Below the pieces are notes generated by a model. That model had not been told where the DNA came from. It ran no database searches and saw only the letters and a program-made list of their open reading frames with translations. Shown here piece after piece: positions 15,201 to 60,710 of a stretch of 64,000 nucleotides of DNA; position 1 is the first letter of the stretch; every line of letters starts with the position of its first letter. The stretch is from Nitrososphaeria archaeon (GTDB taxonomy: Archaea > Thermoproteota > Nitrososphaeria > Nitrososphaerales > JANXEG01): positions 98,594 to 162,593 of the forward strand of contig JARVKA010000001.1 of assembly GCA_029775915.1 (NCBI GenBank), given 5' to 3'. The position numbers were made by a program, and so were the translations under genes.

Positions 15201-15211
15201 TCTTGATAAAT

Positions 15212-35560: not shown

Positions 35561-38500
35561 TTAAGACTTTCTTATCTCTAAAATCTCTTGGTAAAGATTT
35601 TTTAAGACTTCATTATAGTCAACTTTTCCTTGCTCTACTAAATCCATTAATCTTTCAAGTTCTCTTGTCGTTTCTTCACAAGTGTACTTTCCAAAATTTT
35701 GATTCAAATACATGTAAACTTTGAAGCCTAAAGGTGTGCTAAAAAGTCTATTCTCACGTTCAATTATGTATCCTCTTTCTAAAATTGTGAGTATTGTTTT
35801 TGCATATGTACTCGGTCTTCCTATAGCTTTCTCACGCATCAAAGCTACCACTTCACCTTGAATGAAAGGTTTAGCCGCTGGTAAGTAAAGAAGCTTTGCG
35901 AATTTCAATGTGTACTCACCTCCTTCTACAGGTTTTTTTAATTTTATTGGCAAGACTTTATTGAAACCTTCATTTATTATACTAACTGGATTCTCAACAA
36001 ATATTTGATTACTATTAATTAAAACTTTGAATTTTTGGTATAAAATTAGTGCTTCTTTCATTTGACTTGCAATGAATCGTTTAAATATTAATTCATATAG
36101 TTGGAAATGATCTTTAGTGAGTATTTTTGGAAATCGTAAAAATGAAATTGCAGTCTTTAACCTTTCTACATCTATCGCTCTTGTTGGTCTTATACACTCA
36201 TGAGCACCTTCCATAAAGTATCTTCGTGGTGAGAAAAGATTCGGATATTTCTCTTGGATGTATTCTTTAGCTATGTTTATACCCATTGTAGAAACGGTTG
36301 TTGCATCAGTTCTATGGTATGTACACAAACCCATTTCAAAAAGATCTTGAGCGATTTTCATTGTTTTAGTGGCTGAAAAACCAAGTTTTATTGAAGCATC
36401 ACGGATTAACATGTCCGTAGTGTAAGGTGGAGGTGGATAAATTGTTCGTTCTTCATTTTCTAAACTCTCTATTTTGGCTTTGAGATCTTTTAGTTGAAGT
36501 GGGTATTTGAAATTCGGATTTTCAATTAAAACCTTTAAACCATTTGAAAGTATAGCTGAAAGAACTTGCTTTTTCCTTCTCGATTCTTTAGTGCGTTCTA
36601 TTATCCAACCTAAAACTGGTGTTTGAACTCTTCCAGCTGAAAGTTTATGGTTTTGGAAACGTTGCCAAAGCTTTTGACTTAATTCAAACCCTATCCATCG
36701 ATCTTCTATGCGACGTATAACTTGTGCTTTTACCATTTCAATGTTTATTACTCTTCTTTCTTTTATAGCTTGAAGGAAAGCCTTCTTTGTTATTTCATGA
36801 AACTCTAACCTTTCAATACGTTTATTTAAAGGGTAAAGTGAGCAATAAACATCATAAGCGATTTTTTCTCCCTCAATATCGGGATCTGTAGCGACAAAAA
36901 TTGTGTTAACTTCAAGAGCGATTTTTCTCATAGCTTTGATTAACTCTTTCTTAGAGTAGTATTGTTGAGCTTTACATTTTGGACAATAATCAAGCCCTGT
37001 GAATTGATCTCCACATTTTTGACATTTTTTAATGAAGTCATATATTGGTACAAAATAATCTTTCTCAACTTTCACACCATGGAAACCTTCATCCAAAACA
37101 AGATCGTAAATATGTCCCATACTCGCTACAATATTAAGTACAAACTCACCAGCATTCACTTCAAAAACAGTTATATTTCCAACTTTTCTTTTGAAAAGTT
37201 TTCCGAAAAATTTTGAAATCGTTCTTGCCTTTGTTGGAGATTCAACGATTAACAAAGCTGTCTTAATAAAATCTTTTAATCTCTTTGAAATTTTTCCTTC
37301 TTTGATATTTCGAATAATTTCCCGATCTTGATCTATACCTTTAAACCATCTCTCAACATCCCTTAGATTAAACTTTATTGGTAAGAATTCACCAAGTATG
37401 AATTTTAACCTCTCCTTAAGTGAGTAAAATGCTTTTTCATCATCAATTATAATAAAGCTTGCACCTCTAGTTATACCACCAGCAAACATTCTAGAAGTTC
37501 TTCCCGAAGCTTGAACATAAGCTATAGGATCTACTACAACCAAAAAGAATTCACCTTCTTTCTGAATTAAGGAAACCTCTTTGCTACTTGATATTTTCCC
37601 AAAAACCTTAGGAGTTATGGCTTTCTTTAAAAAACTTTGAGTATCTAAAATGATTTTTCTAACAAATTCATCAAAACCTTCTAACTGAATTCCTTTTTCT
37701 AATGCATCTTTAACTTTTTCAACAGTTTGTTTACTTATTGGTAAGATTTTGCGGAGAGTATTAATTCTTTGACTTGCTTCGTCTTGAGCTTTTGGTTCGA
37801 GAAACTCCCTAATATTCTTAAGAAGAGTGAGAAGCTTAACTGGATTATACTCTTCCCAACTCAATCGAATTTCAATTCTTGGAATTCCTGTAAAAATCAC
37901 ATAACGAATTCTTTCTGGAAGATCTATACCCCTTGCTAATGGACTTCGGAAACTTGCAACCCCTATAAGTACCTCATACTCACCTTTCTCAAACTTCTCT
38001 AACATCTCCTCCTCATCCATTTTCACATAAGGGTAAGCTTTAACACCATTAGCATTCAAAAACTCACTAAGTTTTAATATGTACTCTTTACCTAAAACTG
38101 AAGGAACAAAAATAAGACATCCGCTACCAAACTTCTTGATAAGAGATAAAACTTGTTCTTTCATCTCTTGTTTAGACTCAATGTAATAATCCTTGATATT
38201 TCTTAAAAATTCAGGCTTAAATCCTATTTGGAAGTTTAAAAGCTCTTCAAAAAGTTTTATTCGCTTGGTTCTCTTTGCTTTAACAGTTGCTCCAGAAACT
38301 ACAAGAAGGCCTATTTTATTTTGACATTTATACTCATTAATTTGATTCCGCAAACTTTCCAACTTCTCAAGAATTGATTGATAAGATTCTCCCATTCTTT
38401 TCAAACGGCTAACTTCTTTTCTTAACTCTATTATTTGGAAAGCTAAATTTATTATCTCATCACTAAAACCTAAAATCTTCATAATTTTATCTATATTCTT

Positions 38501-39193
38501 TGGGGACTTGAGAAATGAATCGACATCATCTACAAAAACAAAGTCAAAATTCTTATATTGAATGATATCAAAATGATTAATTAGAAACCTTTCAGTCGTT
38601 ACCAAAATTTCAAAGTCTTCTTCTTCAACCCTTTTTAAAATCTCTTTCTTCTTACTCTCACTTATTCCAGCGTGATAACATATTATTTTAGGCTCGAAAC
38701 CAATTCTTTTTGAGTAAATATTAATTTTCTCTTCGACTTGTTGAACAAGAAGTGCAGTTGGCACTATAATGTAACTTTTTTTACCATTAACCACAAAGTA
38801 TAAAGCTGAAACTATTCCTAAGACAGTTTTCCCAACACCTGTAGGCGCTACTATTGAAAAACTTCTGTTTAAAAGGATTCTTCTAACCCATGTTTCTTGG
38901 AGGGACCACATTCTTTGCCCAACAACTTTTTTAAAAAATGAAGAAAAATCATTAAATTTTTTATAAAAGTTAAAAATGTCTTCAGCAAAATAAAGCTTAC
39001 CTCTCTCTTTTAAAACTTTTAAAAGTTCCTCTTGACTTTTTATATCCTCAATTTTTTCAATGCAATTTTCACATACTCCAAATTGGAGCAATCTTTCATT
39101 TGATATTATGCCTTCACAATTAATGCATAAACTATGGTAAATACTTCGAATCATCAACTCTTCAACTCTAATGAATAAGGTTTTATAAATCAA
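35561..39193 (-). CDS. rgy: Reverse gyrase
   Basis: 1210 aa. N-terminal zinc finger, helicase motifs APTGVGKT and VDDVD, Toprim ESPTKA and DPDIEGEKIA, and a topoisomerase IA active-site region (YHRTDA). Confidence 0.95.
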   Translation of the reverse strand: MIYKTLFIRVEELMIRSIYHSLCINCEGIISNERLLQFGVCENCIEKIEDIKSQEELLKVLKERGKLYFAEDIFNFYKKFNDFSSFFKKVVGQRMWSLQETWVRRILLNRSFSIVAPTGVGKTVLGIVSALYFVVNGKKSYIIVPTALLVQQVEEKINIYSKRIGFEPKIICYHAGISESKKKEILKRVEEEDFEILVTTERFLINHFDIIQYKNFDFVFVDDVDSFLKSPKNIDKIMKILGFSDEIINLAFQIIELRKEVSRLKRMGESYQSILEKLESLRNQINEYKCQNKIGLLVVSGATVKAKRTKRIKLFEELLNFQIGFKPEFLRNIKDYYIESKQEMKEQVLSLIKKFGSGCLIFVPSVLGKEYILKLSEFLNANGVKAYPYVKMDEEEMLEKFEKGEYEVLIGVASFRSPLARGIDLPERIRYVIFTGIPRIEIRLSWEEYNPVKLLTLLKNIREFLEPKAQDEASQRINTLRKILPISKQTVEKVKDALEKGIQLEGFDEFVRKIILDTQSFLKKAITPKVFGKISSSKEVSLIQKEGEFFLVVVDPIAYVQASGRTSRMFAGGITRGASFIIIDDEKAFYSLKERLKFILGEFLPIKFNLRDVERWFKGIDQDREIIRNIKEGKISKRLKDFIKTALLIVESPTKARTISKFFGKLFKRKVGNITVFEVNAGEFVLNIVASMGHIYDLVLDEGFHGVKVEKDYFVPIYDFIKKCQKCGDQFTGLDYCPKCKAQQYYSKKELIKAMRKIALEVNTIFVATDPDIEGEKIAYDVYCSLYPLNKRIERLEFHEITKKAFLQAIKERRVINIEMVKAQVIRRIEDRWIGFELSQKLWQRFQNHKLSAGRVQTPVLGWIIERTKESRRKKQVLSAILSNGLKVLIENPNFKYPLQLKDLKAKIESLENEERTIYPPPPYTTDMLIRDASIKLGFSATKTMKIAQDLFEMGLCTYHRTDATTVSTMGINIAKEYIQEKYPNLFSPRRYFMEGAHECIRPTRAIDVERLKTAISFLRFPKILTKDHFQLYELIFKRFIASQMKEALILYQKFKVLINSNQIFVENPVSIINEGFNKVLPIKLKKPVEGGEYTLKFAKLLYLPAAKPFIQGEVVALMREKAIGRPSTYAKTILTILERGYIIERENRLFSTPLGFKVYMYLNQNFGKYTCEETTRELERLMDLVEQGKVDYNEVLKNLYQEILEIRKS

Positions 39194-48232: not shown

Positions 48233-49363
48233 ATGCATAATCGACAAGCCTCAACTTTTAATCATTCAGGGAAATTCGAATCTCCAAATTACGTTAGAAC
48301 AAGTTTAGCTGGTGCGATGATGTTAGGCTTTATACAAGGTCGCTTTTATCGTGATGCGAAATCATATTGCTTAAACCTCTTATTAACTTACAATGATGGT
48401 TGTATTGGTAAATGTGCATATTGTGGACTCTCACGTTCCCGCTCAATTAATGAGCCATGGTTTAAAAAGAGCTTTATAAGAGTGGATTGGCCAATAGTTA
48501 ATCTTGAAGATGTGATTGAAAGAATTCACACAGCTACTTGTGATTTAGAACGTGTTTGTATATCTATGATAACTAACGGTAGAGCAAAATCTGATACTTT
48601 AACTATTGTAAAGAGAATTAGAAGTGTATTCGATCAAATTTCTGTTCTTATAACTCCAACAATTGTGGATAAGGCTTGGTTAGAAGAGGTTAAGGATTTA
48701 GGTGCAGATATGATTGGTGTAGCTATTGATGCTGCAACAAAAAATCTCTTTGATAAGCTTAGAGGTAAAAATGTTGGCGCTCCTCATCGATGGGAACAAT
48801 ATTGGAGCATTTTAAAATCTGCTATAGATATTTTTGGTAAATTCAATGTAGGCATACACTTAATAGTTGGTTTAGGCGAAACTGAGCGTGAGATGGTAAT
48901 GACGATTCAACGTGCTTACGATATGGGTGCTTTAACACATCTTTTCTCATTCTTCCCTGAAGAAGGCTCACCTATGGAGCACCATCCACAACCACCAATA
49001 GGCTCCTATAGGCGTATACAATTGGCAAGATATTTAATTAATAACTCTCTTACTAGAGTTGATAAAATGTTATTCGATTATAAAGGTAGAATTGTAAATT
49101 TTGGCTTGGATGATAAAGAAGTTGAAAGATTCATAAATTCGGGAGAACCATTTATGACATCAGGTTGTAGAAGTAAGAATCGTGAAAATGCATGTAATAG
49201 ACCATACTCAAACTCAACACCATATCAAGCCTTAATAGGAGAGATAAGAAATTATCCTTTTAAACCCGAGCCAAAAGATATTGAGATAATACGATTACAA
49301 CTTTTTGATTATTCTGATATACCAGTTAAAAAATGGATTGACACACCTTACTTAATAGAGTGA
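48233..49363 (+). CDS. Radical SAM protein, LipS1/LipS2-type lipoyl synthase component
   Basis: CxxxCxxC motif CIGKCAYCG. 376 aa. First gene of a radical SAM / radical SAM / LplA / GGR-like cassette; which of LipS1 or LipS2 it is cannot be decided by eye. Confidence 0.6.
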   Translation: MHNRQASTFNHSGKFESPNYVRTSLAGAMMLGFIQGRFYRDAKSYCLNLLLTYNDGCIGKCAYCGLSRSRSINEPWFKKSFIRVDWPIVNLEDVIERIHTATCDLERVCISMITNGRAKSDTLTIVKRIRSVFDQISVLITPTIVDKAWLEEVKDLGADMIGVAIDAATKNLFDKLRGKNVGAPHRWEQYWSILKSAIDIFGKFNVGIHLIVGLGETEREMVMTIQRAYDMGALTHLFSFFPEEGSPMEHHPQPPIGSYRRIQLARYLINNSLTRVDKMLFDYKGRIVNFGLDDKEVERFINSGEPFMTSGCRSKNRENACNRPYSNSTPYQALIGEIRNYPFKPEPKDIEIIRLQLFDYSDIPVKKWIDTPYLIE

Positions 49364-49367
49364 TTAA

Positions 49368-50378
49368 ATGATGCATATACTTGATTATTGCTTTCATCAA
49401 CCTTTTACCAATCTTAAACACTTATTCAATAAAGCATCAGAAATCTTAAAGCGCAACTTTAATGGTAAAATCTTCTTTTACATACCGAGTATGGTAAGAT
49501 ATGAAACTAACTATTATAAATTTAATAAGCGAGCATTTCCAGCGATATCTGTAACAGGTAAAAAGTGCCTTCTTAATTGTGATCATTGTGGAGGAAAACT
49601 TCTTGAGAGTATGATTCCAGCTGAAAAGCCAGAAGAGGTTTATGATATATTAAGAAAGATTTATGAGAATGGTGGGAAAGGTTGTTTAATAAGCGGGGGT
49701 TGTAATCTTGAGGGCTACGTTCCTCTCGAACCTTTTTTACCTATAATAGCGAGGGCTAAACGTGAGATGGATTTAGAGATAGTTATGCATACAGGTTTAA
49801 TTCCACTAGAGATGATAAATGTGCTAATTGATACTAACGTAGATGCTATACTTCTTGATATAATCGGCTCTGAACTCACTCTCAAAAAAGTATGCCATCT
49901 TGAAAAAAAGATAGAAGCATTTGAAAGTTTACTTAAAGCACTTAATAATAAACGATTATCAGTAGTTCCACACATTGTAGTTGGTATGCATTATGGTAAA
50001 ATGTTAGGTGAGTTAATAGCTTTAGATTTAATTTCACGTTATAAGCCTGCTGCAGTTGTGATAGTAGCCTTTATGCCAATTGAAAGTACTAAAATGGCAA
50101 ATATTCAACCACCATCTCCACAAGATATAAGTAGAGTTATGCTTGCTGCTAGATTTTTATTACCATCTACACCCATTGTATTGGGATGTGCTAGACCAAG
50201 AGGTAATCATAGAATAACTACGGATGCTTTAGCGATTAAATGTGGTTTAAATGGTATCGCTTATCCTACTGAGGCTGCTTTTATTATTTGTGAAAATTTA
50301 GGTTATAATACGGTAATTTTTGATAAATGTTGTAGTCTCATTTGGAAGGATATTACTAAATTGAGTCATAAAATATGA
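49368..50378 (+). CDS. Radical SAM protein, LipS1/LipS2-type lipoyl synthase component
   Basis: CxxxCxxC motif CLLNCDHCGG. 336 aa. Starts 4 nt after the previous gene, and its stop overlaps the lplA start. Confidence 0.6.
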   Translation: MMHILDYCFHQPFTNLKHLFNKASEILKRNFNGKIFFYIPSMVRYETNYYKFNKRAFPAISVTGKKCLLNCDHCGGKLLESMIPAEKPEEVYDILRKIYENGGKGCLISGGCNLEGYVPLEPFLPIIARAKREMDLEIVMHTGLIPLEMINVLIDTNVDAILLDIIGSELTLKKVCHLEKKIEAFESLLKALNNKRLSVVPHIVVGMHYGKMLGELIALDLISRYKPAAVVIVAFMPIESTKMANIQPPSPQDISRVMLAARFLLPSTPIVLGCARPRGNHRITTDALAIKCGLNGIAYPTEAAFIICENLGYNTVIFDKCCSLIWKDITKLSHKI

Positions 50379-51976
50379 AATCATTTTGGAGAGTTCTTGA
50401 TACAGGTTTTAAAAGTGCAGCAGAGAATATGGCTTTAGATGATGTAATCTTAGATTGTAAAGCTATGGAATTAATCCCAAATACAATTCGCTTTTTACGC
50501 TTCAAGCCACCATGTGTACTTATAGGGTATCATCAAGATGTTGAACATGAAGTAAGATTGGATTATGTTAAAGCTAACAATATAGATGTTAATAGAAGAA
50601 TTACAGGTGGAGGTGCTATTTACTTTGATGAGAACACAATAGGTTGGGAGATTTTTGCATCTAAGTCTTCCATAGAAGATTGTAATAAAATTGAGGATTT
50701 ATTTGAAATTATGTGTAAAGCGCCTATTAAGGCACTTAGAAAGATTGGAATAAATGCAACATTTAGACCAAAAAATGATATAGAAGTAAATGGTAGAAAA
50801 ATCTCAGGGACTGGTGGTACAGAGAGAGGTTGTGCTTTTTTATTTCAAGGCACTTTATTAACTGATTTTGATATAGAGTCGATGATTAAATCGCTTAGAA
50901 TACCTATTGTAAAGCTGAAGGATAAAGGGATACAGTCAGTTAAGCAAAGAATCACATGTGTGAAATGGGAATTGGGTTATACATTAACTTATGAAGAATT
51001 TAAGCGTTTACTTATTGAATGTTTCGAAGAAACATTCAATATTGAATTAATTGAAGGTGGTTTATCTGAAAAAGAAGAGCGTTTATTATCAGAGAGACTC
51101 CCATACTTTCAATCGCCAGAATGGCTTTATTTAGATCGTCGAGCACCTGAAGAGAGTGGTATAGTTAGAGCTATCGATAAAACAAAAGGTGGATTGATTG
51201 AGGTTACGCTATCATTAGATAAAAGGGCAAAAGTTATTAAATCTATACTTATCACGGGAGATTTTTTTGTCACGCCAGCGAGGGGGATACTCGATTTGGA
51301 AGCTGCACTTAAATTTAGTAGCTACGATGAAGAATCTATTAAAAAGATAGTTACATCAACCTTCAAAAGGTATAATATACAAATAGTTGGGATAGAGCCA
51401 CAAACCATTATCAACTTAATACTTGAAGCTATTAATAAAATGAGATATGAAGAGCTAGGTATAAGCTTAGAGGAAGCTAACAGTATTTACTCTCTTACAA
51501 AAGATCTTTCAAGTCTTTTGAATGGGAATTGTAAATATCTTCTTCTTCCATACTGCTCTAAACTCCTAAGTTGTTCATTACGCAAAGAGGAGGGTTGTTC
51601 ATTATGTGGATTGTGTAGCGTTGGTGAGGCATACAAACTTGGACAAGAAGCTGGCCTTATAGTTAAAACTATACAAAACTTTGAGCATTTAATGGAAACA
51701 TTAAAAGAGATAAAAAAATCAAACTCAAGTTACATAGGTTGTTGTTGTGAAGCATTCTATATAAAGCATTTAGATGATCTTCGAGAAACAAAAGTTCCAG
51801 CTTTACTTATAGATATAGATGATAAAACTTGCTACGATCTTGGTAAAGAGGATGAAGCTTATAAAGGCTCTTTTGAAGGCCAAACAACCTTAAAGTTAGA
51901 CTTATTAAAAAAGCTCATTGAAGCTATAAGATTTAAAGATCATTTTCAAAATAAAGAGAGTGTTCAACTTTCATGA
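50375..51976 (+). CDS. lplA: Lipoate-protein ligase (LplA catalytic + LplB-like accessory domain) fused to a Cys-rich C-terminal domain
   Basis: BPL/LPL catalytic pattern (..LRFKPPCVLIGYHQ.., lipoyl-AMP lysine motif NGRKISGTGG). About 150 extra C-terminal residues carry CSLCGLCSVGEAY and GCCCEAFY. Confidence 0.75.
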   Translation: MKSFWRVLDTGFKSAAENMALDDVILDCKAMELIPNTIRFLRFKPPCVLIGYHQDVEHEVRLDYVKANNIDVNRRITGGGAIYFDENTIGWEIFASKSSIEDCNKIEDLFEIMCKAPIKALRKIGINATFRPKNDIEVNGRKISGTGGTERGCAFLFQGTLLTDFDIESMIKSLRIPIVKLKDKGIQSVKQRITCVKWELGYTLTYEEFKRLLIECFEETFNIELIEGGLSEKEERLLSERLPYFQSPEWLYLDRRAPEESGIVRAIDKTKGGLIEVTLSLDKRAKVIKSILITGDFFVTPARGILDLEAALKFSSYDEESIKKIVTSTFKRYNIQIVGIEPQTIINLILEAINKMRYEELGISLEEANSIYSLTKDLSSLLNGNCKYLLLPYCSKLLSCSLRKEEGCSLCGLCSVGEAYKLGQEAGLIVKTIQNFEHLMETLKEIKKSNSSYIGCCCEAFYIKHLDDLRETKVPALLIDIDDKTCYDLGKEDEAYKGSFEGQTTLKLDLLKKLIEAIRFKDHFQNKESVQLS

Positions 51977-53040
51977 GTGTTGATTATGATGTAATTATCG
52001 TAGGTGCAGGTCCAGCTGGCTCATCTGCAGCTATAAGTTGTGCTAAAGTAAATTCCAAAACACTACTTATTGAACGTAGTTTTTTTGGTAGGCATAAACC
52101 TTGTGGCGGTATTTTACCACCAATTACCCTTTACATCTTTGATGAGTTAGGGATAAATATACCTTCAAAAGTTTTTTGCAATCCTAAAAGCCTTAAGCTA
52201 TTTTACATACCTCCAAGTGGCAAGTTGAATGGAGGAGCTTTAAAATGTTACAAACTTCTCAATATTAATAGAGATTTATTTGATAAATGGTTGGTTGAAG
52301 AGGCTTTAAATAAGGGTGTTGACTTTCAAACAAACTCAACTGTAATATCATTTAAACAAGATGATGATAATGTGGAGGTAAAGTTAAGGTGCCGTGATGA
52401 AAATATAAGAGTAACTGCTAAATATTTACTTGCAGCAGATGGTACTCATTCAATTATAAGAAAGTGCTTTGAAGGGGCTTATCAAAAATTTTTAATCATA
52501 ATGCAAGAATATTGGAAGTGTGAGGGCGAGTTTGAAGATTGTTTTTATACCATTTTAAGTAAAAGAATAACACCAACTTATGGTTATGTTGTGCCGAAGG
52601 ATAACGCCATATTAATTGGAAGTGGTGCTAAAGACTTAAAACAAAGTATTCAAAGTTTAGAGAACTTAAAGAATTGGTTGAAAGAGGAATTTAAATTCAA
52701 GCCCCAATCTTTAATTAAAAGGGAAATTGGTTTTATACCATACGATAAATGTTTTATCGGAATGGGTCGAGTTATACTATTAGGTGACGCTGCAGGTTTT
52801 TGCAATAAATTCTCTGGTGAAGGTGTAAGATTCGCACTTGAAAGCGGATTGATAGCATCAAAAGCGATAGAGGAAGCTGAGAATAAGGGTGTTCAAGTTT
52901 CTGAAGCATACGCTAAGAAAGTTCAACCTTTATTAGAATTTATAGAGAAGACTAAAAGTATCATCAATATAGATACTGATAAGTGGAGAGAAGAGTTCGT
53001 CTTAAATGAACTTAAGCGCTTGAATATTTGGCAAAGATAA
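51973..53040 (+). CDS. Geranylgeranyl-reductase-like FAD-dependent oxidoreductase (LipT-like)
   Basis: FAD motif DVIIVGAGPAGSSAA, and GDAAGF near the C-terminus. 355 aa. The 4-nt start/stop overlap with lplA indicates co-translation. Confidence 0.65.
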   Translation: MSVDYDVIIVGAGPAGSSAAISCAKVNSKTLLIERSFFGRHKPCGGILPPITLYIFDELGINIPSKVFCNPKSLKLFYIPPSGKLNGGALKCYKLLNINRDLFDKWLVEEALNKGVDFQTNSTVISFKQDDDNVEVKLRCRDENIRVTAKYLLAADGTHSIIRKCFEGAYQKFLIIMQEYWKCEGEFEDCFYTILSKRITPTYGYVVPKDNAILIGSGAKDLKQSIQSLENLKNWLKEEFKFKPQSLIKREIGFIPYDKCFIGMGRVILLGDAAGFCNKFSGEGVRFALESGLIASKAIEEAENKGVQVSEAYAKKVQPLLEFIEKTKSIINIDTDKWREEFVLNELKRLNIWQR

Positions 53041-53128
53041 CTTTCATTAGATTATGTAAGATATTAAAACGATTTTTCGATAGGATTAAAAATTAGTGGT
53101 TACCACATTATAATCAGAGGAGTAGAAA

Positions 53129-53449
53129 ATGGAGATAATGGGAAAGGAAGTTTTATGGATTAGGAATGAGGGGCTAAGCATGAAAACGGTTATACGAGTG
53201 GGCATTACAGAACGCCTCACGAATATTCTTAATTCTATTAAAGCTATTCGATTATTATCAGAGGGTAGGTGTGTGAATGAAGATTTCCCATTCGCTTTAA
53301 TCGAGTATGGTAAACGTAAAATACTTTTAAAAAGCCCTATCTCTGGATTTATTCTTGAGGTTAATAAAGAGGTTTTGAAGAACCCACAATTGATTAATAA
53401 CGATCCTTATGGTAAAGGTTGGCTCGCTTTAATAAAACCTACACCTTAG
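53129..53449 (+). CDS. Minimal GcvH-like lipoyl-carrier protein (LbpA-like)
   Basis: 106 aa. IEYGKRKILLKSPISG has the lysine 8 residues before P-x-SG, as in the H-protein ESVKA..P-x-SG segment. C-terminal NNDPYGKGWL. Lacks the usual N- and C-terminal extensions. Confidence 0.65.
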   Translation: MEIMGKEVLWIRNEGLSMKTVIRVGITERLTNILNSIKAIRLLSEGRCVNEDFPFALIEYGKRKILLKSPISGFILEVNKEVLKNPQLINNDPYGKGWLALIKPTP

Positions 53450-54301
53450 GTGTTTAAATTGGTTGAATTACCAATAGTGATTGCTTCCGCATTCTTCACG
53501 ATTGGTACGATTATATTTATAATTGGCGTATTATTGAATTTGAGGATTTGGTTACTCGGTTCAGAGAGCATTATTGGGACCTTTAAAGAAGTCATATCAA
53601 CTCTCATAAACCCAAAGTTTTGGTCCACAATTCTTAAAACATTTATAACAAAAATTTTCGGCCAATATAAGCTTTACAAAATCGATAATTTAAGAGGGAT
53701 TGAAAAATGTTGCTTTGTAACTTTTTATGTGTTAGTCATACTTGCAAATCATATAGCAGCTGATATAGCGAGTGGTGCTAAAACATTAACAGAATTTATT
53801 ATAGAGTTTTTCAAATCACCATTCTTTCCAGGTTATATATTCTCCGAGTTAGGTGCTGAATTAAATGGTTTTTGGATAGCATTTCTCTTTATTGATAATT
53901 TCGCAATGGTAATGGTATTTCTCTCAGAAGGTTTAGTGATGTATAGAAGATTTATTAAAAAATATTTTATATTCGCCACAAAAGAGGATGTAATCGGCTT
54001 ACTATTACCAGTAATTTGGTTTATCTTTCGTTGGATCGCTGAAGCAGCAACTATTGTAAAGTTTGGTACACCATCTGGTAGTCATTATATGTTTATAGCT
54101 TACTTAATCTCAAGACCACTTACATTACTTACACCAAATCAAGTTGAGATTCTTTATAGTATTATGTGGCCGGCTTCAGGCTTCTTCCTTAGTCTTTTCT
54201 TTGGTTTAATACCCTATACTGGCAGGTTATGGCATGCTTTCGCTGGACCTATAACTATGTTACTTAACTCTGTACCATACAAAAAGGAGGTATTGAGGTA
54301 A
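53450..54301 (+). CDS. Polytopic membrane protein, NarI/HdrE/DsrM-like (putative cytochrome b quinone-interacting subunit)
   Basis: 283 aa with about 6 TM segments. C-terminal GRLWHAFAGP resembles the NarI-family R-L-x-H-x-x-x-x-P motif, and further His residues lie in TM segments (ANHIAAD, GSHYMF). The GTG start abuts the stop of the GcvH-like gene, and its stop overlaps the next start (TAATG). Confidence 0.5.
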   Translation: MFKLVELPIVIASAFFTIGTIIFIIGVLLNLRIWLLGSESIIGTFKEVISTLINPKFWSTILKTFITKIFGQYKLYKIDNLRGIEKCCFVTFYVLVILANHIAADIASGAKTLTEFIIEFFKSPFFPGYIFSELGAELNGFWIAFLFIDNFAMVMVFLSEGLVMYRRFIKKYFIFATKEDVIGLLLPVIWFIFRWIAEAATIVKFGTPSGSHYMFIAYLISRPLTLLTPNQVEILYSIMWPASGFFLSLFFGLIPYTGRLWHAFAGPITMLLNSVPYKKEVLR

Positions 54302-55545
54302 TGAAACAAACTAAAATCCCACTTAGTGTGAAGCAATTAATAGAGTTAGATGGGTGTGCGAGATGTGAGTTATGTAGAGAATTTTGCTCATTATATGCGT
54401 TATTAAATGAAAACCCACACCCACTCAAATTCCCAACTAGTACTGTAGCTGTAATTAAACAATTTAGATCGATTTTACGGGATCAATTTGGATTAAAAGC
54501 GAAGCTATTAAGAAGTAAACCTAAGATTAAAGAAAAGTTATGGATGCTCGCTGATGCATTATTTTTATATTGTACAACTTGTGGTAGATGTAAAGTGGTA
54601 TGCCCACTCGGTATTGACACATGGTCTCTTTTAAACTCTGTAAGAGAATACTTTATGAATAATTTCACAAGCCAATATCCTACACATTGTGTTATAGATT
54701 TTATATCAAACACGATTAATACAACTATACAAAATTCAGGCAATATCTTTAATGTATCAAATGCATCACGTCATGATTGGGCTTTATACACAGGTGCTGA
54801 TATTCAAGTAAAGGATAATGCAAAAGTCGTATACTTTGTGGGTTGCGTATCTTCTTACCAAGGTAGAGCTCAAGATATAGCTCATGCGATAACAGCGATT
54901 CTCAATTCAGTGGGAGAAGATTGGACTTTATTAAAGGATGAATGGTGTTGTGGACACCCACTCACTATAAGTGGTGCTGGGAATAAAGCAAAGAGTATTG
55001 CAGAGCATAATTTAAGGATGATAAGGGATGTTGGAGCTAAAATGGTTATAACAGGATGTCCAGGGTGCTATTTAGCCCTTAAGCATGAATATCCAAAGAT
55101 TTTAGGTAAACCTGTAGAGTTTGAAGTATTGCACTTTACAGAACTCTTAAATATTTATCTTAATGAGGGAAAATTAAAACCAATAAAACTCGATGGGAAA
55201 GTAACTTATCATGATCCATGTGAATTGGGAAGGTTGGGTGGTGTTTTAAATGAGCCACGACGAATTATTAATACCTTTACTAATGGATTGTTAGAACCTT
55301 ATGGTTCAGGTATGGATGGTATATGTTGTGGTTCTGGGGGGTTGATAAAAGCTACAAATCCTTCATTGGCTGACTTACTTGCAATTAAAAGGTTAGATAT
55401 GCTTATGGAAACTAAATCGAAGTTAATACTTTCCGCATGCCCTACATGTGTACAAAGCTTAAGTAAGGTAGCTATGGATAAAAATAAGGAATTACGTGTT
55501 ATAGATTTAGCTGAGTTAGTTGCTCAACAACTGGGCTTGATATAA
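54301..55545 (+). CDS. HdrD/DsrK/GlcF-like Fe-S protein (two 4Fe-4S ferredoxin motifs + two CCG domains)
   Basis: CARCELCREFC and CTTCGRCKVVCP clusters. CCG motifs WCCGHP and CCGSGG, plus YHDPCELGR and SACPTC. 414 aa. Confidence 0.8.
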   Translation: MKQTKIPLSVKQLIELDGCARCELCREFCSLYALLNENPHPLKFPTSTVAVIKQFRSILRDQFGLKAKLLRSKPKIKEKLWMLADALFLYCTTCGRCKVVCPLGIDTWSLLNSVREYFMNNFTSQYPTHCVIDFISNTINTTIQNSGNIFNVSNASRHDWALYTGADIQVKDNAKVVYFVGCVSSYQGRAQDIAHAITAILNSVGEDWTLLKDEWCCGHPLTISGAGNKAKSIAEHNLRMIRDVGAKMVITGCPGCYLALKHEYPKILGKPVEFEVLHFTELLNIYLNEGKLKPIKLDGKVTYHDPCELGRLGGVLNEPRRIINTFTNGLLEPYGSGMDGICCGSGGLIKATNPSLADLLAIKRLDMLMETKSKLILSACPTCVQSLSKVAMDKNKELRVIDLAELVAQQLGLI

Positions 55546-55548
55546 AGT

Positions 55549-55980
55549 TTACGTTAATTTAAGCCTTTGTAACTCACTTTTAATAAACTCCTCAAGTTCT
55601 TTGAGATCAGATATTAAAGCCTTCTTATCTTCCTCAAAATTTGATGGTTGTATAACAGCTATCCATCCAGCCCCATAAGGGTCTTCATTAAGTAACTTAG
55701 GTTGACTCTTTAAATTCTCATTCACTTCTACAAGTGTTCCTGAGACTGGTGAGATTAATGGGCCGACCCACTTCCCCGTCTCTATTGTTCCTAAAGGCTT
55801 TCCTTTAACAACTAATTTACCTTTAGGCAAAAGTCGGATGAAAGTTATTGGCCCTGCCGATCTTTGAGCAACATCAGTTACTCCAACACGCACCTTTCCA
55901 TTCTCTAACTTAACCCACATATGGTCTTTTGAGTAATATAACCCTTCTTTAAACTCGAATTTTTCAAGTAACTTTACCAA
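55549..55980 (-). CDS. gcvH: Glycine-cleavage H-protein family lipoyl-carrier protein
   Basis: 143 aa. HMWVKLENGKVRVGVTD, lipoyl-lysine segment IETGKWVGPLISPVSG, and NEDPYGAGWI. Last gene of the glcD-glcE-glcF-like operon. Confidence 0.8.
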   Translation of the reverse strand: MVKLLEKFEFKEGLYYSKDHMWVKLENGKVRVGVTDVAQRSAGPITFIRLLPKGKLVVKGKPLGTIETGKWVGPLISPVSGTLVEVNENLKSQPKLLNEDPYGAGWIAVIQPSNFEEDKKALISDLKELEEFIKSELQRLKLT

Positions 55981-56059
55981 GTTTACCCCAAAAATTTTTC
56001 AACTTAATGGTTTATTAATTTTATGCATTCTTCTAAGAGTTTTTTATTATACAGTAATT

Positions 56060-57217
56060 TTACATTAAACCTAATCTTTGAGCGATGAGTTCTGCTATAT
56101 CAATTACTTGTAGAGCTTTATTCTTACGTGAGGTAGCATCAGCAAGGCTTTGATAACAAGTTGGACAAGCTGAGATTATAACCTCAGCACCTGTTTTAAT
56201 GAGCATTTCTAATCGCTTATTAGCTATACTCTCAGATAATTGTGAATCGGTAACTTTTAAAAGCCCCCCTCCGCCACAACAAAATCCTTCTTTACCACGC
56301 TCTATTGGTTCTACAAATTTATCACTTATAGATTTAATTACCCTTCTTGGCTCATTTATAATCCCTAAAATCCTTCCCAACTCACATGGATCGTGATAAG
56401 TTACTTTACTCTCAAATTTAGGTATTTTTAGCTTTCCTTTCTTTATATATTCGTCTAAAATTTGTGAAAAGTGTAAAACTTCGAAGTTAAGTTTTCGCCC
56501 CAATACCTCTGGATACTCTTTTTTTAACGCTAAGCAACAACCCGGACATCCGCTAACTACCTTCGTTGCACCAGTTTCCTCTATCATCTTTACGTTATGC
56601 TCTGCAACTTTTTTGAACTCTTTTGTAGCGCCTTCTAACTTTAATGGGTGTCCACAACACCATTCATCCTTTAATAAAGTCCAATCTTCTCCAACGTAAT
56701 TTAAGATTGATGCTATAGCTTGAGCGACTCCTTGTATCCTTCCAGAGTATGATGTGACACAACCAACAAAATATACCATATCGGCTTTATCTTTTATTGG
56801 AGCTTCAACGCCTGTATAAATTACCCAATCCTTTCTTAATGTGTTATCCATCATAAAGATATTCTTCGCATTATTTATAGTATTTACCAATTGCTCAGCC
56901 CCAAGAGGTACTGCATTTGCTTCAGCCATAATTTCACGAGTGATAAACATTATATCCGTATATTTTACTGCGGATGGACAAGCGATTTCACAATTCGCAC
57001 ACATAGTGCATTTATAAAGGTGATTCGCCACATCCTTAGCTATATCGATTCTTTTATCAACCATAGCTCTGGTTAAATAAAGCCTCCCTCTTGGTGAATC
57101 TGCCTCAATTCCTAATACTCTATAAGTTGGGCAACTTTGAAGGCAGAAGCCACAATGAACACAACGAAGAATTAATTTGTAATAATCGGATTGGTCGAGT
57201 TTATTAAATTTAGCCAA
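56060..57217 (-). CDS. glcF: GlcF/HdrD-like Fe-S subunit (two 4Fe-4S motifs + two CCG domains)
   Basis: CVHCGFCLQSCP, CTMCANCEIACP, WCCGHP, CCGGGG and SACPTC. Close paralog of 54301-55545 in the C-terminal two thirds. Confidence 0.8.
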   Translation of the reverse strand: MAKFNKLDQSDYYKLILRCVHCGFCLQSCPTYRVLGIEADSPRGRLYLTRAMVDKRIDIAKDVANHLYKCTMCANCEIACPSAVKYTDIMFITREIMAEANAVPLGAEQLVNTINNAKNIFMMDNTLRKDWVIYTGVEAPIKDKADMVYFVGCVTSYSGRIQGVAQAIASILNYVGEDWTLLKDEWCCGHPLKLEGATKEFKKVAEHNVKMIEETGATKVVSGCPGCCLALKKEYPEVLGRKLNFEVLHFSQILDEYIKKGKLKIPKFESKVTYHDPCELGRILGIINEPRRVIKSISDKFVEPIERGKEGFCCGGGGLLKVTDSQLSESIANKRLEMLIKTGAEVIISACPTCYQSLADATSRKNKALQVIDIAELIAQRLGLM

Positions 57218-57218
57218 A

Positions 57219-58571
57219 TCAAATCCCTCCTATAAATCTACCTGGATTCAATATCCCTTTCGGATCAAATCGATCTTTAATAGCCTTCATTAAGAAAAAG
57301 TCCTTTCTAATAGGTCCCCATACATCAACTTTTTCTTTAACACTTAATGGTGCGCATTCAACCACTAAACTACTCGCAGAGCCTATACTTAATACATAAG
57401 CTCTTAACTCTTCTATCGCTTTTACAAGCTCGTATGGATTTTCGGAATTAAAATAAGTATAAAGAATACCAAGCCCCAAATGGGCTGTTATAGAATATTG
57501 TAAAGCATATTTCTCAGAAATCTTTTGTGTAAAATCCATAACATCCCCAACTTTAGAGATTAAAGTACTGATCTTACATCTAATTGAGAACTTATTTGAT
57601 GATAAATTAGGATATTCTTGTATTTTCTTCCATAATGATTCATGCTCACTACCATTTATGGAGAATGCAGTTATTGAATCATGCTTCTTAACAATTTCTA
57701 ACAACTCAGAAATCCTTCTTCTCATACTATCTTTAGTTATGCTTAATACCTTTAAAGCTAGTAAATACCCCTTAGAGATATTCAAACTATTTAATATCTC
57801 ACATGAGTTAGGATCGAATCCTTCTATAGCTGAAGGCCCTATACCTATAGATGAGTGGCTTACCATTAATACTTCTTTATACGCTTTAACAAAATCGTTA
57901 ATTGAGTTAAATACTGCAAGAAAGCTTTCTTCAAACTCTGGTAAAGGTGCGAGTTTAAAAGTTACTTGAGTTATTACACCGAGTGTACCGATTGAACCTA
58001 TGTATAATTTCTTTATATCATAACCAGCTACATTTTTTACAACTTTTCCACCAAACTTCGTTAAAGTCCCGTCAGAGTTTGCTACTTTAATACCCAACAA
58101 AAGATCTCTTACCCCGCCGTAAAGATGGCGTATAGGTCCAAAAGAATTTGAGGCAACTACACCTCCTAATGTAGCTAATGATGAGTATGGTGGATCTAAT
58201 GGTAAAAATTGACCTTTATTAACTAAAACTTTTTGAAGTTCATCTAAAATAATTCCTCCTTCAGCTGTAACTACAAGTTCTTCTGGCAAATACTCAATTA
58301 TTTTATTCAACCTTTTGAGTAAAAGTATTATATCTACCCTTTTAGGTATATTACCTAAACTCATCATAGTCCCCCCTCCCCAAGGTATAATTGAAATACC
58401 CTCATCATTCGCTCTCTTTAAAATCTCAGCTACTTCCTCCATCGATTTTGGAATAACTACAGCTTTTGGTTTAAGACCATCAACTTCGAACTTTTCAACT
58501 TCCTCACTAGTAAGCGCTTCTGAATTTGAGATTACACGATTTATTGCTAACTCTGAATTTTTATTTGACAT
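57219..58571 (-). CDS. glcE: FAD-binding PCMH-type oxidase subunit, GlcE-like
   Basis: 450 aa. FAD-binding segment IIPWGGGT. C-terminal ..DPKGILNPGRF typical of FAD-linked oxidases. Confidence 0.7.
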   Translation of the reverse strand: MSNKNSELAINRVISNSEALTSEEVEKFEVDGLKPKAVVIPKSMEEVAEILKRANDEGISIIPWGGGTMMSLGNIPKRVDIILLLKRLNKIIEYLPEELVVTAEGGIILDELQKVLVNKGQFLPLDPPYSSLATLGGVVASNSFGPIRHLYGGVRDLLLGIKVANSDGTLTKFGGKVVKNVAGYDIKKLYIGSIGTLGVITQVTFKLAPLPEFEESFLAVFNSINDFVKAYKEVLMVSHSSIGIGPSAIEGFDPNSCEILNSLNISKGYLLALKVLSITKDSMRRRISELLEIVKKHDSITAFSINGSEHESLWKKIQEYPNLSSNKFSIRCKISTLISKVGDVMDFTQKISEKYALQYSITAHLGLGILYTYFNSENPYELVKAIEELRAYVLSIGSASSLVVECAPLSVKEKVDVWGPIRKDFFLMKAIKDRFDPKGILNPGRFIGGI

Positions 58572-58581
58572 ATAAAAAACC

Positions 58582-59988
58582 TCACGAAGCTAAAATCTTT
58601 ACCTCCTTTTCAGGGAAAATCTTACCAGGATTGCATAAGCCTTTAGGATCGAAGATTTCTTTGATAAAGAGCATACGCTTCAATTCATCTTTACTATATT
58701 GTACGGGCATTAACTCAGCTTTTTCAATACCTACTCCATGCTCGCCAGTAATCGTCCCACCAACATCTAAACATAATTTGAGAATATCAAGGCCTAATTT
58801 CAAAGCCTCTTGCTCCTTACCCTCAACTCTTGGATCGTAAAGAATTATAGGATGAAGATTCCCCTCTCCAGCATGAAATACATTAGCGATCATGAAACCA
58901 TGCTCCTCGCCCCACTTTCTTATAATAGGCATAACTTCAGGGAGTTTGGATCTAGGTATTGTACCATCATCAACTACATAACTAGGTGCAAGATTGCCCA
59001 TAGATCCGAAAGCTGCTTTACGACCAGCCATTAACTTAGCCATGCCATCAGGATCCTTCGCCATCTCTACACTACGTGCATGATTCTTCTTACAAATCTC
59101 TATAATCTTCTCACTTTGCACATCTAACTCATCTTCAAACCCATCAACTTCGAATAGTAAGATCGCTTCTGCATCTAAAGGCAAGCCACAAGCTTTAACA
59201 CCAGATTCAACAGCCTTAATAGCATACTTATCCATGAATTCTATAACAGCTGGAAGCTTACCTACTGCTATAACTTCAGAAACGGTATTTGACGCATCTA
59301 CCAAAGAGTCGAATATTGCTAGAATAACCGCAGTAGCTGGTGGTTTACGTAAAATCCTTACAACAGCTTTTGTTACTATACCTAAAGTCCCTTCAGAACC
59401 TACCATAAGTCCAACTAAATCGTAGCCTGGTGGATCGAGTGCTTTTCCACCCAATTCTAAAACATCTCCATTAGGTAAAACCATTTCTAATCCCAATACA
59501 TGATTCGTTGTAACACCATATTTGAGGCAATGATTTCCTCCAGCATTATGAGCTATATTACCACCTATGCTCGATACTGTATAGCTTGCAGGATCTGGAG
59601 CGTAAAAGAAGCCCTTTTCCGATGCAACTGCGGTTATTTGTGGTGCAGTAACATAAGGCTCAACAACAACCCTTTGATTATCAAAATCAACTTCTAAGAT
59701 GCTATTCATTCTTGCAAATGCAATAACAACCCCTCCCCTTATTGGTACAGCGCTACCACTTAACGCAGTCCCAGCACCCCTCGCTAAGTATGGAATATTG
59801 TATTTATTACAAATATTTACAATATTCACAACTTCATCCCTTGAGGTTGGTAAAACTACAACATCGGGCATACTTTTGAAGAATGTTTGACCATCACATT
59901 CATATACCATAAGCTCTTCTTTTTTACGAAGTAAACGATCAATACCTACAATACTCTCTAACTCTTTTAAAATATGATCACTAATCAT
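58582..59988 (-). CDS. glcD: FAD-linked oxidase, GlcD / D-lactate dehydrogenase-like
   Basis: 468 aa. RGAGTALSG FAD motif, GEHGVG, and C-terminal DPKGLCNPGK. Confidence 0.85.
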   Translation of the reverse strand: MISDHILKELESIVGIDRLLRKKEELMVYECDGQTFFKSMPDVVVLPTSRDEVVNIVNICNKYNIPYLARGAGTALSGSAVPIRGGVVIAFARMNSILEVDFDNQRVVVEPYVTAPQITAVASEKGFFYAPDPASYTVSSIGGNIAHNAGGNHCLKYGVTTNHVLGLEMVLPNGDVLELGGKALDPPGYDLVGLMVGSEGTLGIVTKAVVRILRKPPATAVILAIFDSLVDASNTVSEVIAVGKLPAVIEFMDKYAIKAVESGVKACGLPLDAEAILLFEVDGFEDELDVQSEKIIEICKKNHARSVEMAKDPDGMAKLMAGRKAAFGSMGNLAPSYVVDDGTIPRSKLPEVMPIIRKWGEEHGFMIANVFHAGEGNLHPIILYDPRVEGKEQEALKLGLDILKLCLDVGGTITGEHGVGIEKAELMPVQYSKDELKRMLFIKEIFDPKGLCNPGKIFPEKEVKILAS

Positions 59989-60524: not shown

Positions 60525-60710
60525 ATGCCAACAGTTCATATACATATGTATGAGGGAAGAACAAAAGAGCAAAAGCGCAATCTGGTTAAGAATGTGACTG
60601 ATGCGATTGTAAAGAGCCTTGATGTTAAGCCTGAAGCAGTTACTATCTTTCTTCATGAAATATCAAAAGAGAATGTTGCAAAAGCTGGAAAGATTGTTGC
60701 TGAGGCTTAA
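60525..60710 (+). CDS. 4-oxalocrotonate tautomerase family protein
   Basis: 61 aa. MPTVHIHMYEGRT has the catalytic Pro1 after Met removal, with a beta-alpha-beta pattern. Confidence 0.8.
   Translation: MPTVHIHMYEGRTKEQKRNLVKNVTDAIVKSLDVKPEAVTIFLHEISKENVAKAGKIVAEA

Follow-up and report, generated by a model that had tools for sequence, protein, structure and literature searches.

Proteins resembling heterodisulfide reductase (Hdr) are widespread in archaea and bacteria without coenzyme M (CoM) or coenzyme B (CoB), and the disulfide on which they act is a long-standing question. The closest described system to the one reported here is the sHdr-LbpA system of sulfur oxidation (Cao et al. 2018, PMC6067878; Tanabe et al. 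2023, PMC10332631), in which a GcvH-like lipoate-binding protein, Hdr-like proteins with CCG domains and a four-gene lipoate cassette occur together, and in which lipoate is proposed to act outside the classical 2-oxoacid and glycine complexes. In the Culexarchaeia a GcvH gene likewise lies inside an Hdr cluster of a non-methanogen, together with Ehe hydrogenase and HdrBC genes (Kohtz et al. 2022, 10.1101/2022.04.06.487207, PMC9723716); the authors speculated that GcvH might offer a disulfide-containing lipoyl group to HdrB, and in the searchable literature this sentence was the sole earlier mention found of such a role in a non-methanogen. The locus analysed here (11.8 kb, eleven open reading frames (ORFs), positions 48233-59988) lies in a 64,000-nucleotide (nt) stretch of contig JARVKA010000001.1 from a Nitrososphaeria archaeon (GCA_029775915.1), referred to below as the window. 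It encodes a lipoylation cassette, two proteins resembling the H-protein of glycine cleavage, a membrane protein, two CCG iron-sulfur proteins and two flavoproteins. Read as a whole, the region may be a self-contained system around a lipoyl protein and Hdr-type disulfide reductases, in which the lipoylated H-protein H143 would be the substrate of the CCG enzymes; this reading is given an even chance.

Family assignment was based on Pfam and NCBIfam, and the domain scan covered window ORFs of at least 100 amino acids (aa). The eleven genes are arranged convergently, the facing stop codons being separated by 3 nt (55546-55548). Plus-strand genes overlap or are spaced by 0-4 nt, except for 88 nt ahead of the gene for the second H-like protein, H106; on the minus strand the three enzyme genes are 1-10 nt apart, and 79 nt lie ahead of the H143 gene. 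Among the scanned ORFs, neither GcvT, GcvP, Lpd, E1 or E2 nor HdrA, DsrE, TusA or rhodanese domains were found, and a phmmer screen of the window with Hdr, Mvh and OsmC queries gave no match. A preliminary description of this DNA had listed the same genes at the same positions, the 3-nt spacing and the lack of E1/E2, GcvT/P, Lpd, sHdr, DsrE and TusA; ORF positions and domain-level family matches bear it out on all of these, the spacing to the nucleotide and the absences for the ORFs scanned. The names Glc and Hdr denote domain architecture only, since no NCBIfam equivalog cut-off was reached, and no NCBIfam Hdr, Dsr or Tfr model reached its cut-off for the CCG proteins. The AT-rich intergenic regions were read for promoters and terminators and were uninformative.

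The plus-strand group begins with the lipoylation cassette. The first gene (48233-49363, +) encodes a LipS2-like radical SAM lipoyl synthase subunit (376 aa, PF04055) that scores 234.5 bits with the NCBIfam LipS2 model, under the cut-off of 270; despite this score LipS2 is the top match, a CX3CX2C motif starts at C57, the gene adjoins that of LipS1, and orthologues are found in the same cassette in the related loci L009, L010, L035, L036, L086-L091 and L096. The other radical SAM subunit of lipoyl synthase, LipS1 (336 aa, 49368-50378, +), reaches 232.8 bits, above its cut-off of 230, and has a CX3CX2C motif starting at C67. The third gene (50375-51976, +) encodes a 533-aa lipoate:protein ligase of the Lpl(AB) type, composed of an LplA catalytic domain and an LplB-type C-terminal domain (PF21948, 164 bits; PF10437, 30 bits) and, in addition to the described family, a C-terminal, cysteine-rich DUF116 domain (PF01976). 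The DUF116 part (approximately 51422-51973) contains nine invariant cysteines, including CxxCxxC and CCC, and the LplA-DUF116 fusion recurs in Nitrososphaerota, Bathyarchaeia and one Chloroflexota metagenome-assembled genome (MAG), with more than 120 protein clusters whose members are 520-550 aa long. DUF116 may be an Fe-S domain serving lipoyl synthesis. Comparison of its AlphaFold2 (AF2) model (predicted local distance difference test (pLDDT) 89) with the PDB gave no significant structural neighbour, and a literature search on DUF116 returned only unrelated papers on DUF1162. The fourth gene (51973-53040, +) encodes a 355-aa FAD oxidoreductase of the geranylgeranyl-reductase family (TIGR02032, 166.8 bits, cut-off 158.8); the call as LipT, a protein with a role in this pathway as proposed in PMC10332631, rests on this family model and on the cassette position, which is the same in relatives, and not on a LipT-specific model. 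By gene content, LipS2, LipS1, LplA(AB)-DUF116 and LipT appear to match the LipS1/LipS2-Lpl(AB)-LipT pathway of lipoate assembly. An AIRS-family gene beside LipT in relatives was rejected as a member of the system; it is surrounded by hypA/C/D/F and is probably HypE.

The candidate recipient of the lipoyl group is H143 (143 aa, 55549-55980, -), which has a GCV_H domain (PF01597, 132 bits) with the motif IETGKWVGP; the same fold (PF01597) is found in H106 (106 aa, 53129-53449, +). A lysine of each protein aligns with the lipoyl-lysine of the solved GcvH structures 3ift and 1onl. Neither has the canonical ESVKAxSDxYxP motif, the corresponding stretches being IETGKWVGPLISP in H143 and IEYGKRKILLKSP in H106. 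With the NCBIfam model TIGR00527 (gcvH), H143 scores 100 bits and H106 51.9 bits, both under the cut-off of 115.85; with the GcvH subfamily model PRK01202 of NCBIfam, H143 reaches 126 bits and exceeds the cut-off of 117. Three classes separate among approximately 50 H-like ORFs from related loci. In type A, that of H143, the lysine is conserved within the motif ETGKWVGP (GKW), which is unlike ESVKAxSD, and members range from Caldarchaeales-like MAGs to Bathyarchaeia and Thorarchaeota. In type B, that of H106, the lysine position is occupied by R or M (GRK, GRR, GMR, ARK) in all members examined except H106 itself, which has K. Type-B genes always lie directly upstream of a membrane/CCG414 pair or of a pair encoding the flavoprotein FAD475 and CCG385 (e.g., L001 9597-9965 and 13311-13712; L009 6911-7309; L101 8464-8832; L102 3453-4233), and H106 is 46% identical to H122 of Ca. 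Terraquivivens, likewise encoded ahead of the membrane gene. The third class is canonical GcvH, exemplified by a second H gene in the Bathyarchaeia locus L010, which stands alongside a type-A H gene.

These classes bear on the earlier proposal that the locus holds two modules, each with a lipoyl H-protein, which is not sustained: only the H143 class keeps the lipoyl lysine, and there are probably not two lipoyl carriers because the H106 class has R or M at this position elsewhere. By its sequence H143 is a credible candidate for a lipoyl carrier. H106, whose own lysine might still be lipoylated in the window organism, is probably an H-fold protein that serves the membrane module as an accessory subunit. 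H143 contains no cysteine and H106 contains one (C48). LbpA proteins possess two conserved cysteines, N- and C-terminal, besides the lipoyl lysine, some archaeal LbpAs being exceptions (PMC6067878); the lack of LbpA-type cysteines in H143 fits a purely redox role. No description of the lysine-less H-like class was found in the searchable literature.

The putative partners of H143 are the HdrD-like protein CCG414 (414 aa, 54301-55545, +), whose gene start shares 1 nt with the stop of the preceding membrane gene, and the GlcF-like/HdrD-like protein CCG385 (385 aa, 56060-57217, -), each with two ferredoxin motifs and two CCG domains. As the criterion for the HdrB/HdrD type, two CX31-39CCX35-36CXXC motifs were sought, including the second cysteine of each CC pair. 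Both proteins contain two CxxCxxCxxxC and two C-X33/34-CC-X35/36-CxxC motifs, the latter making up the ten-cysteine HdrB signature (C182, C216, C217, C253, C256 and C307, C342, C343, C380, C383 in CCG414; C153, C187, C188, C224, C227 and C278, C313, C314, C351, C354 in CCG385). The two proteins are approximately 45% identical overall, with matches concentrated in the CCG half, and this close paralogy implies a common substrate. Their closest solved relative is mycobacterial EtfD (9ojn), followed by HdrB. In EtfD the CCG clusters are sealed and non-catalytic: in the first CC pair the second cysteine is replaced by Thr, and the other cluster is capped by the His of CPHC (PMC13083937). Aligned to EtfD and HdrB, CCG385 shows CC and not CT, and CPGC and not CPHC, as does HdrB; with CC and CPGC kept, the window proteins resemble the catalytic rather than the wire type. 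The original CCG/Hdr-like calls are thus upheld for both paralogues at the level of the catalytic HdrB-type cysteine signature. In a neighbour-joining tree of 114 CCG proteins, the H-associated ones, including both window proteins, fall into one large subtree, and Asgard GlcD-partnered clades occur without H. A literature search on GlcF and CCG biochemistry yielded nothing usable.

The protein encoded between H106 and CCG414 (283 aa, 53450-54301, +) was assigned by fold and profile search as a divergent membrane subunit of the NarI/HdrE/EtfD type; searches against Pfam (including PF02665), NCBIfam and PDB sequences gave no match. A word-indexed homologue search recovered 16 close relatives. 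An exhaustive profile search recovered 44 related clusters among 1.84 billion representatives, so that the family is small. Several homologues (P0139-P0147, 673-696 aa) carry the membrane domain fused N-terminally to Fer4 and two CCG domains, and distant profile matches carry PF02665 (NarI family). The AF2 model is of modest confidence (pLDDT 62, predicted template modelling score (pTM) 0.64); with this pLDDT-62 model, the best Foldseek match was EtfD 9ojn (E 6e-3, probability 1.0, TMq 0.56) and the next one NarI (E 0.2). Histidine is invariant at two positions only, H101 and H262, with a spacing of 161 residues; in EtfD the single haem b is held by His78 and His241, which are spaced by 163 residues (PMC13083937). 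The two invariant histidines point to one haem as in EtfD and not two, and the subunit is likely to bind one haem b. Because of the fusions, the fold match and the gene overlap, the membrane protein and CCG414 are considered one HdrDE/EtfD-like unit. The label 'NarI-like' given to the protein at the outset is acceptable at the superfamily level, in view of the Foldseek result, the PF02665 relatives and the CCG fusions. EtfD-like fusions of a membrane or NarI domain with Fer4 and CCG were also seen elsewhere in archaeal metagenomes, among them L102 147-2033 and L008 5249-7159.

The minus-strand group continues beyond CCG385 with two FAD-binding flavoproteins. The GlcE-like protein GlcE450 (450 aa, 57219-58571, -; FAD_binding_4, PF01565, and a weak PF02913) scores 172.5 bits with NCBIfam GlcE (cut-off 284) and 188 bits with TIGR00387 glcD (cut-off 568), and the NCBIfam GlcF score is 142.5 bits against a cut-off of 333. 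The GlcD-like 2-hydroxyacid dehydrogenase flavoprotein GlcD468 (468 aa, 58582-59988, -; FAD_binding_4, PF01565, and FAD-oxidase_C, PF02913) was called on Pfam and PDB matches, not NCBIfam; its top PDB matches are 9qgz 'glycolate oxidase' (289 bits) and LctD (247 bits). The domain architecture and three-gene order of GlcDEF are thus present. The FAD475 protein of relatives was rejected as an orthologue of the window GlcD or GlcE, the identity being 24-31%.

Co-occurrence of these genes was determined in related genomes. GTDB species genomes were scanned with an alignment of five CCG paralogues, loci were mapped by phmmer, and the sample consisted of 78 species-level loci picked by CCG similarity alone. 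An H-like gene was present in 20 of the 78 loci, approximately two being expected under a generous null (binomial P approximately 2e-14, a value inflated by relatedness); lipoylation genes were present in 11, ten of them with H. The co-location of H-like and CCG genes is not due to chance. H-like, CCG, flavoprotein and lipoylation genes were found together in Ca. Scotarchaeum, a 'Nitrosopumilales'-labelled MAG, several Bathyarchaeia, Geothermarchaeales, Hecatellales and a few bacterial-labelled MAGs, and Caldarchaeales, Bathyarchaeia, Hecatellales and Thorarchaeota share the building blocks, in many cases together with an MvhAGD-HdrABC hydrogenase and OsmC. The supercluster of Ca. Terraquivivens comprises hypF, hdrC-hdrB-hdrA-mvhD-mvhG-mvhA, hycI and a narI-like gene with CCG405; a type-B H gene, the membrane protein and CCG414; a PhoU/AbrB-like regulator; a second type-B H gene with FAD475 and CCG385; and a type-A H gene, OsmC, hyp genes, LipT, LplA-DUF116, LipS1 and LipS2. 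A second Nitrososphaeria-like lineage, recovered in a metagenome scan with the membrane-protein alignment, has hdrCBA-mvhDGA-membrane-CCG414, type-A H, OsmC, CCG405 and a regulator, and continues with type-B H-FAD475-CCG385-LipS2-LipS1. Superclusters are conserved in Terraquivivens, Scotarchaeum, this second lineage, Bathyarchaeia and Hecatellales. Homologues of the type-A H gene also occur in other, independent contexts, namely H-LplA-HdrC-HdrB beside a membrane-bound [NiFe] hydrogenase, FAD4-CCG-H-LplA-H-FAD4-CCG, and, in a Thorarchaeote, near FAD4 and CCG.

Composition varies around this association. In a 91%-identical relative (L100, contig SRR32459162_17487, 10803-12790) the glcD-glcE-CCG385-H operon is kept and faces a NarI gene with CCG405, which stands where the window has the H106/membrane/CCG414 module and the cassette. 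No flavoprotein module lies nearby in Scotarchaeum, and most relatives have FAD475 as the flavoprotein, plus Mvh-Hdr and OsmC. The constant core across relatives is a type-A H gene with one or more CCG modules. Of the supercluster first proposed, the recurring association therefore stands, in that H-like, CCG and LipS1/LipS2/LplA/LipT genes co-localise repeatedly in distant archaea, and the fixed set does not; the system is modular, and the closest relative has another membrane module. The hdrCBA-mvhDGA genes and hyp maturation genes are contiguous with the cluster in L001-L007, L084, L086-L091, L096 and L101 (e.g., L001 687-7313), and in one lineage the membrane/CCG414 pair directly follows mvhA, as if in one operon; the window contains none of these hydrogenase, Hdr and hyp genes. 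An OsmC gene adjoins the type-A H gene in Terraquivivens, Scotarchaeum, the second lineage, L101 and L096, and a canonical-motif H gene in Bathyarchaeia L010 (L001 16879-17334, L009 4009-4536, L010 2917-3447, L096 9460-9915, L101 12249-12713), which hints at a lipoyl-dependent peroxidase link. A paper on the Wolframiiraptoraceae does not mention lipoate, Hdr or glycine cleavage.

Several further features of these loci were recorded. Upstream of the L100 operon lie a TRAP transporter, an isocitrate-lyase/PEP-mutase-family gene and a gene for a succinate-dehydrogenase-like flavoprotein. Proteins with AbrB/MazE and PhoU-like parts are encoded in the clusters of relatives (L001 12088-13179 and 17370-18443; L102 2234-3292; L101 8985-10052). 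They may have a regulatory role, and the window yielded no counterpart of them. In L096 (a Terraquivivens-like Logan assembly) the membrane/CCG414/type-B H module is fragmented at 14708-16929, by pseudogenisation or by assembly or frameshift errors.

From these elements a mechanism can be proposed. LipS2, LipS1, LplA(AB)-DUF116 and LipT would build the lipoyl group on H143, as family membership and adjacency suggest. The dithiolane, as disulfide or dithiol, would then be acted on by CCG414 and CCG385 at their paired noncubane [4Fe-4S] sites, to judge from the neighbourhood and the cysteine signature. CCG414 and the membrane subunit would form an HdrDE/EtfD-like complex, probably with H106 as an accessory subunit, that connects the lipoyl couple to the quinone pool via two cubane clusters and probably one haem b. 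GlcD468, GlcE450 and CCG385 would form a GlcDEF-like flavoenzyme that joins the lipoyl couple to that of a 2-hydroxyacid and its 2-oxoacid. Observed are the gene identities, the motifs, the paralogy, the fusions that bear on the membrane unit and the conserved neighbourhood; it is predicted that H143 becomes lipoylated, that the CCG sites use its lipoyl arm, and that the membrane unit binds haem and couples to quinone.

The direction of electron flow was considered at standard potentials. The lactate/pyruvate couple lies at approximately -0.19 V and glycolate/glyoxylate at approximately -0.09 V. For lipoamide, E0' is -0.29 V (quoted in PMC6067878), and the membrane complex is thus most plausibly a dihydrolipoyl-protein:quinone oxidoreductase. 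Transfer from dihydrolipoyl groups to quinone is strongly downhill. Transfer from a 2-hydroxyacid to lipoate is approximately 100-200 mV uphill, which makes the direction of a relay doubtful; possible net directions are hydroxyacid oxidation pulled by quinone, or reduction of a 2-oxoacid by the dihydrolipoyl protein. The full relay from hydroxyacid via lipoate to quinone, as first suggested for this locus, is for this reason unlikely in that form: co-occurrence, the CCG signature and the membrane partner speak for it, and the uphill first step speaks against it.

The same step weighs against lipoyl-H143 as the shared CCG substrate, as do several other points. Full-cysteine CCG domains also occur in GlcF, GlpC and SdhE-type proteins, which are not known to use thiol chemistry in passing electrons to quinone, so that the CCG signature is permissive and not diagnostic. 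All support beyond domain identity comes from gene neighbourhood; the loci counted are not phylogenetically independent, and the binomial P overstates the significance; around many of the more distant GlcD+CCG pairs, in Asgard archaea and some Bathyarchaeia, a 10-kb neighbourhood is free of H genes; the window is without the OsmC and Mvh-Hdr genes of its relatives; and the membrane-protein model is of low confidence. Part of this fits an explanation in which the modules are adjacent and independent, GlcD-GlcE-CCG385 being a GlcDEF-type enzyme of the usual kind that passes electrons from a 2-hydroxyacid (glycolate or D-lactate) to quinone, the membrane/CCG414 pair an HdrDE- or DsrMK-like complex acting on another thiol or protein, and the H-protein a client of the cassette or an assembly hub. 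The three-subunit GlcDEF-like architecture, the GlcD+CCG pairs without a nearby H gene and the GcvH subfamily score of H143 are as expected under this explanation, and hydroxyacid-to-quinone transfer needs no carrier and no uphill step. It is nevertheless considered unlikely: H-like genes are strongly enriched beside this CCG clade in many lineages, in arrangements unrelated to one another they are immediate neighbours of HdrBC or of FAD4+CCG and LplA, the close CCG paralogy implies a common substrate, and H143 falls under the gcvH equivalog cut-off and is without the ESVKAxSD motif.

Three explanations with a different use of the lipoyl group are less probable. The CCG modules could keep the lipoyl H-protein reduced for antioxidant defence or thiol homeostasis, the dihydrolipoyl protein feeding a thiol peroxidase or other disulfides in the manner of lipoyl-dependent Ohr/OsmC and of the Trichomonas H-protein/L-protein/OsmC system. 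Lipoyl-dependent Ohr and OsmC systems are known (cited in PMC10332631, refs 7, 8), OsmC adjoins the H gene in several relatives, and in these an H2-driven Mvh-HdrABC could supply low-potential electrons; in the 64-kb window, however, no OsmC or other peroxidase gene was detected, and quinol and hydroxyacids are too oxidising for the reduction of lipoate, so that neither window module would be a thermodynamically sensible reductase, and the explanation is quite improbable for this locus. It is slightly less probable again that H143 is the H-protein of a glycine cleavage system, or of some other lipoyl enzyme, with genes elsewhere in the genome, the membrane HdrDE-like complex re-oxidising dihydrolipoyl-H to quinone in place of an NAD-dependent dihydrolipoamide dehydrogenase (L-protein). 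Such a reaction would be strongly exergonic, no Lpd-type gene is among the scanned window ORFs, and H143 is GcvH-like at the subfamily level; yet GcvT and GcvP are missing from these ORFs and from approximately 100 mapped related loci (the latter screened with the study's own query set only), the type-A motif departs from canonical GcvH, Bathyarchaeia L010 has a canonical H besides its type-A H, and the FAD/CCG385 module and the type-B H would be left unexplained. Finally, Hdr-like CCG proteins with a lipoate-binding protein and LipS1/LipS2/Lpl(AB)/LipT are the hallmark combination of sHdr-LbpA-type sulfur oxidation (PMC6067878, PMC10332631), in which the lipoyl protein would carry sulfane sulfur to Hdr-like proteins. 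This pathway was rejected for the window as very improbable, there being no sHdrA, DsrE, TusA or rhodanese gene among the scanned window ORFs and no conserved LbpA cysteines in H143; the Hdr genes of relatives are of the hdrCBA-mvhDGA hydrogenase type and not shdrC1B1AHC2B2.

Returning to lipoyl-H143 as the CCG substrate, recurrence of the arrangement in distant archaea means that protein-bound lipoate may be a disulfide substrate of Hdr-like enzymes outside methanogens. The position of the carrier class beside MvhAGD-HdrABC and OsmC in relatives suggests a general lipoyl thiol/disulfide currency, as CoM-S-S-CoB is in methanogens. In a wider form, offered tentatively and with some doubt, the lipoate of GKW H-proteins would be the general Hdr-type disulfide/dithiol currency of non-methanogenic Thermoproteota and Asgard archaea, replacing CoM-S-S-CoB, with the lysine-less H-like class as built-in subunits of CCG enzymes. 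It would join H2 (via MvhAGD-HdrABC and membrane hydrogenase-HdrBC) and organic acids (via FAD-CCG enzymes) to the quinone pool (via HdrDE/EtfD-like complexes) and to the detoxification of peroxide (via OsmC).

Regarding the host, the G+C content of the window is approximately 33%, that of a low-GC archaeon, and archaeal ribosomal proteins L1, L10P and P1 are encoded together with Cdv/ESCRT proteins (Vps4-like, 2656-3846, +; Snf7-like, 22793-23473, +) and reverse gyrase (35561-39193, -), a marker of hyperthermophily from which the host is taken to be a hyperthermophile. Identical proteins were found in the MAG assemblies GCA_038867915.1 and GCA_038844305.1 (NCBI label 'Nitrososphaerales archaeon'). 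A 61-aa ORF of the 4-oxalocrotonate-tautomerase family (PF01361, 62 bits; 60525-60710, +) occupies part of the 0.8 kb that separate the GlcD-like gene from that of an EamA transporter. One tRNA-like gene (33062-33148, +), reported by ARAGORN without an assigned anticodon ('tRNA-???'), may be an intron-containing archaeal tRNA. A gene for a radical-SAM protein with an HMPTM-type zinc ribbon (11182-12708, -) adjoins that of an 887-aa DUF11-repeat protein (8495-11158, +), which may be a surface protein.

The cluster offers a concrete, testable candidate for the disulfide substrate of Hdr-like proteins, a small lipoyl protein with its own maturation genes, and is compact enough to be expressed, as it comprises a single carrier, a soluble flavoenzyme and a membrane complex of two subunits. 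It also gives a functional context to DUF116 and to the lysine-less H-like class. If the proposal is true, lipoate biology would include more than the carriage of acyl and aminomethyl groups and sulfur oxidation by the sHdr route, archaeal respiratory chains would have a new entry point, and bifurcating Mvh-HdrABC in non-methanogens would be explained.

Compared with known systems, the window appears to be a variant on the theme of Hdr-like proteins and a lipoate-binding protein, the evidence being wholly comparative. It differs from the sHdr-LbpA system in being without sHdrA, sHdrC1B1, sHdrC2B2, DsrE, TusA, rhodanese and LbpA-type cysteines, in the DUF116 domain of its ligase, and in its partners, an HdrDE/EtfD-like membrane complex and a GlcDEF-like flavoenzyme, to which relatives add Mvh-HdrABC and OsmC. 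Like HdrDE of cytochrome-containing methanogens, it has a soluble subunit in which two complete CCG motifs accompany two ferredoxin-type clusters, encoded beside a membrane subunit probably of the NarI superfamily; in contrast to HdrDE, there are no methanogenesis genes in the window, the membrane subunit misses PF02665 and has two invariant histidines, suggesting one haem and not two, and the proposed substrate is a protein-bound lipoyl disulfide instead of CoM-S-S-CoB. Mycobacterial EtfD (9ojn; PMC13083937) is the top sequence match for both CCG proteins and the top fold match for the membrane protein, and combines a transmembrane part with two [4Fe-4S] clusters, two CCG domains and one haem b, an architecture in which some homologues of the window membrane protein are likewise fused; its CCG clusters are sealed (CT, CPHC) and receive electrons from electron transfer flavoprotein (ETF), whereas the window has CC and CPGC and no ETF genes nearby.

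The GlcD-, GlcE- and GlcF-like three-gene operon is shared with GlcDEF and D-lactate dehydrogenase-type enzymes, GlcD468 matching LctD and glycolate oxidase with 247-289 bits. Unlike in these enzymes, the scored subunits are under the NCBIfam equivalog cut-offs (GlcD468 having been judged by Pfam and PDB), an H-protein gene ends the operon, and the closest relatives of the CCG subunit pair with FAD475 preceded by a lysine-less H-like protein. Lipoyl-dependent Ohr/OsmC systems, e.g., that of Trichomonas (cited in PMC10332631), resemble the proposed one in a free-standing lipoyl H-protein as thiol redox carrier, with OsmC beside H in relatives; the window is without OsmC and L-protein, and the putative partners of its carrier are iron-sulfur CCG enzymes. 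The searchable literature was found to contain no description of an HdrDE-like/GlcDEF-like/lipoyl-H supercluster or of the LplA-DUF116 fusion. In the Culexarchaeia the use of a lipoyl group by HdrB was a passing suggestion for one cluster type, whereas here a lipoyl H-protein candidate is found with HdrDE-like and GlcDEF-like modules and a lipoylation cassette, in an association that extends over many lineages.

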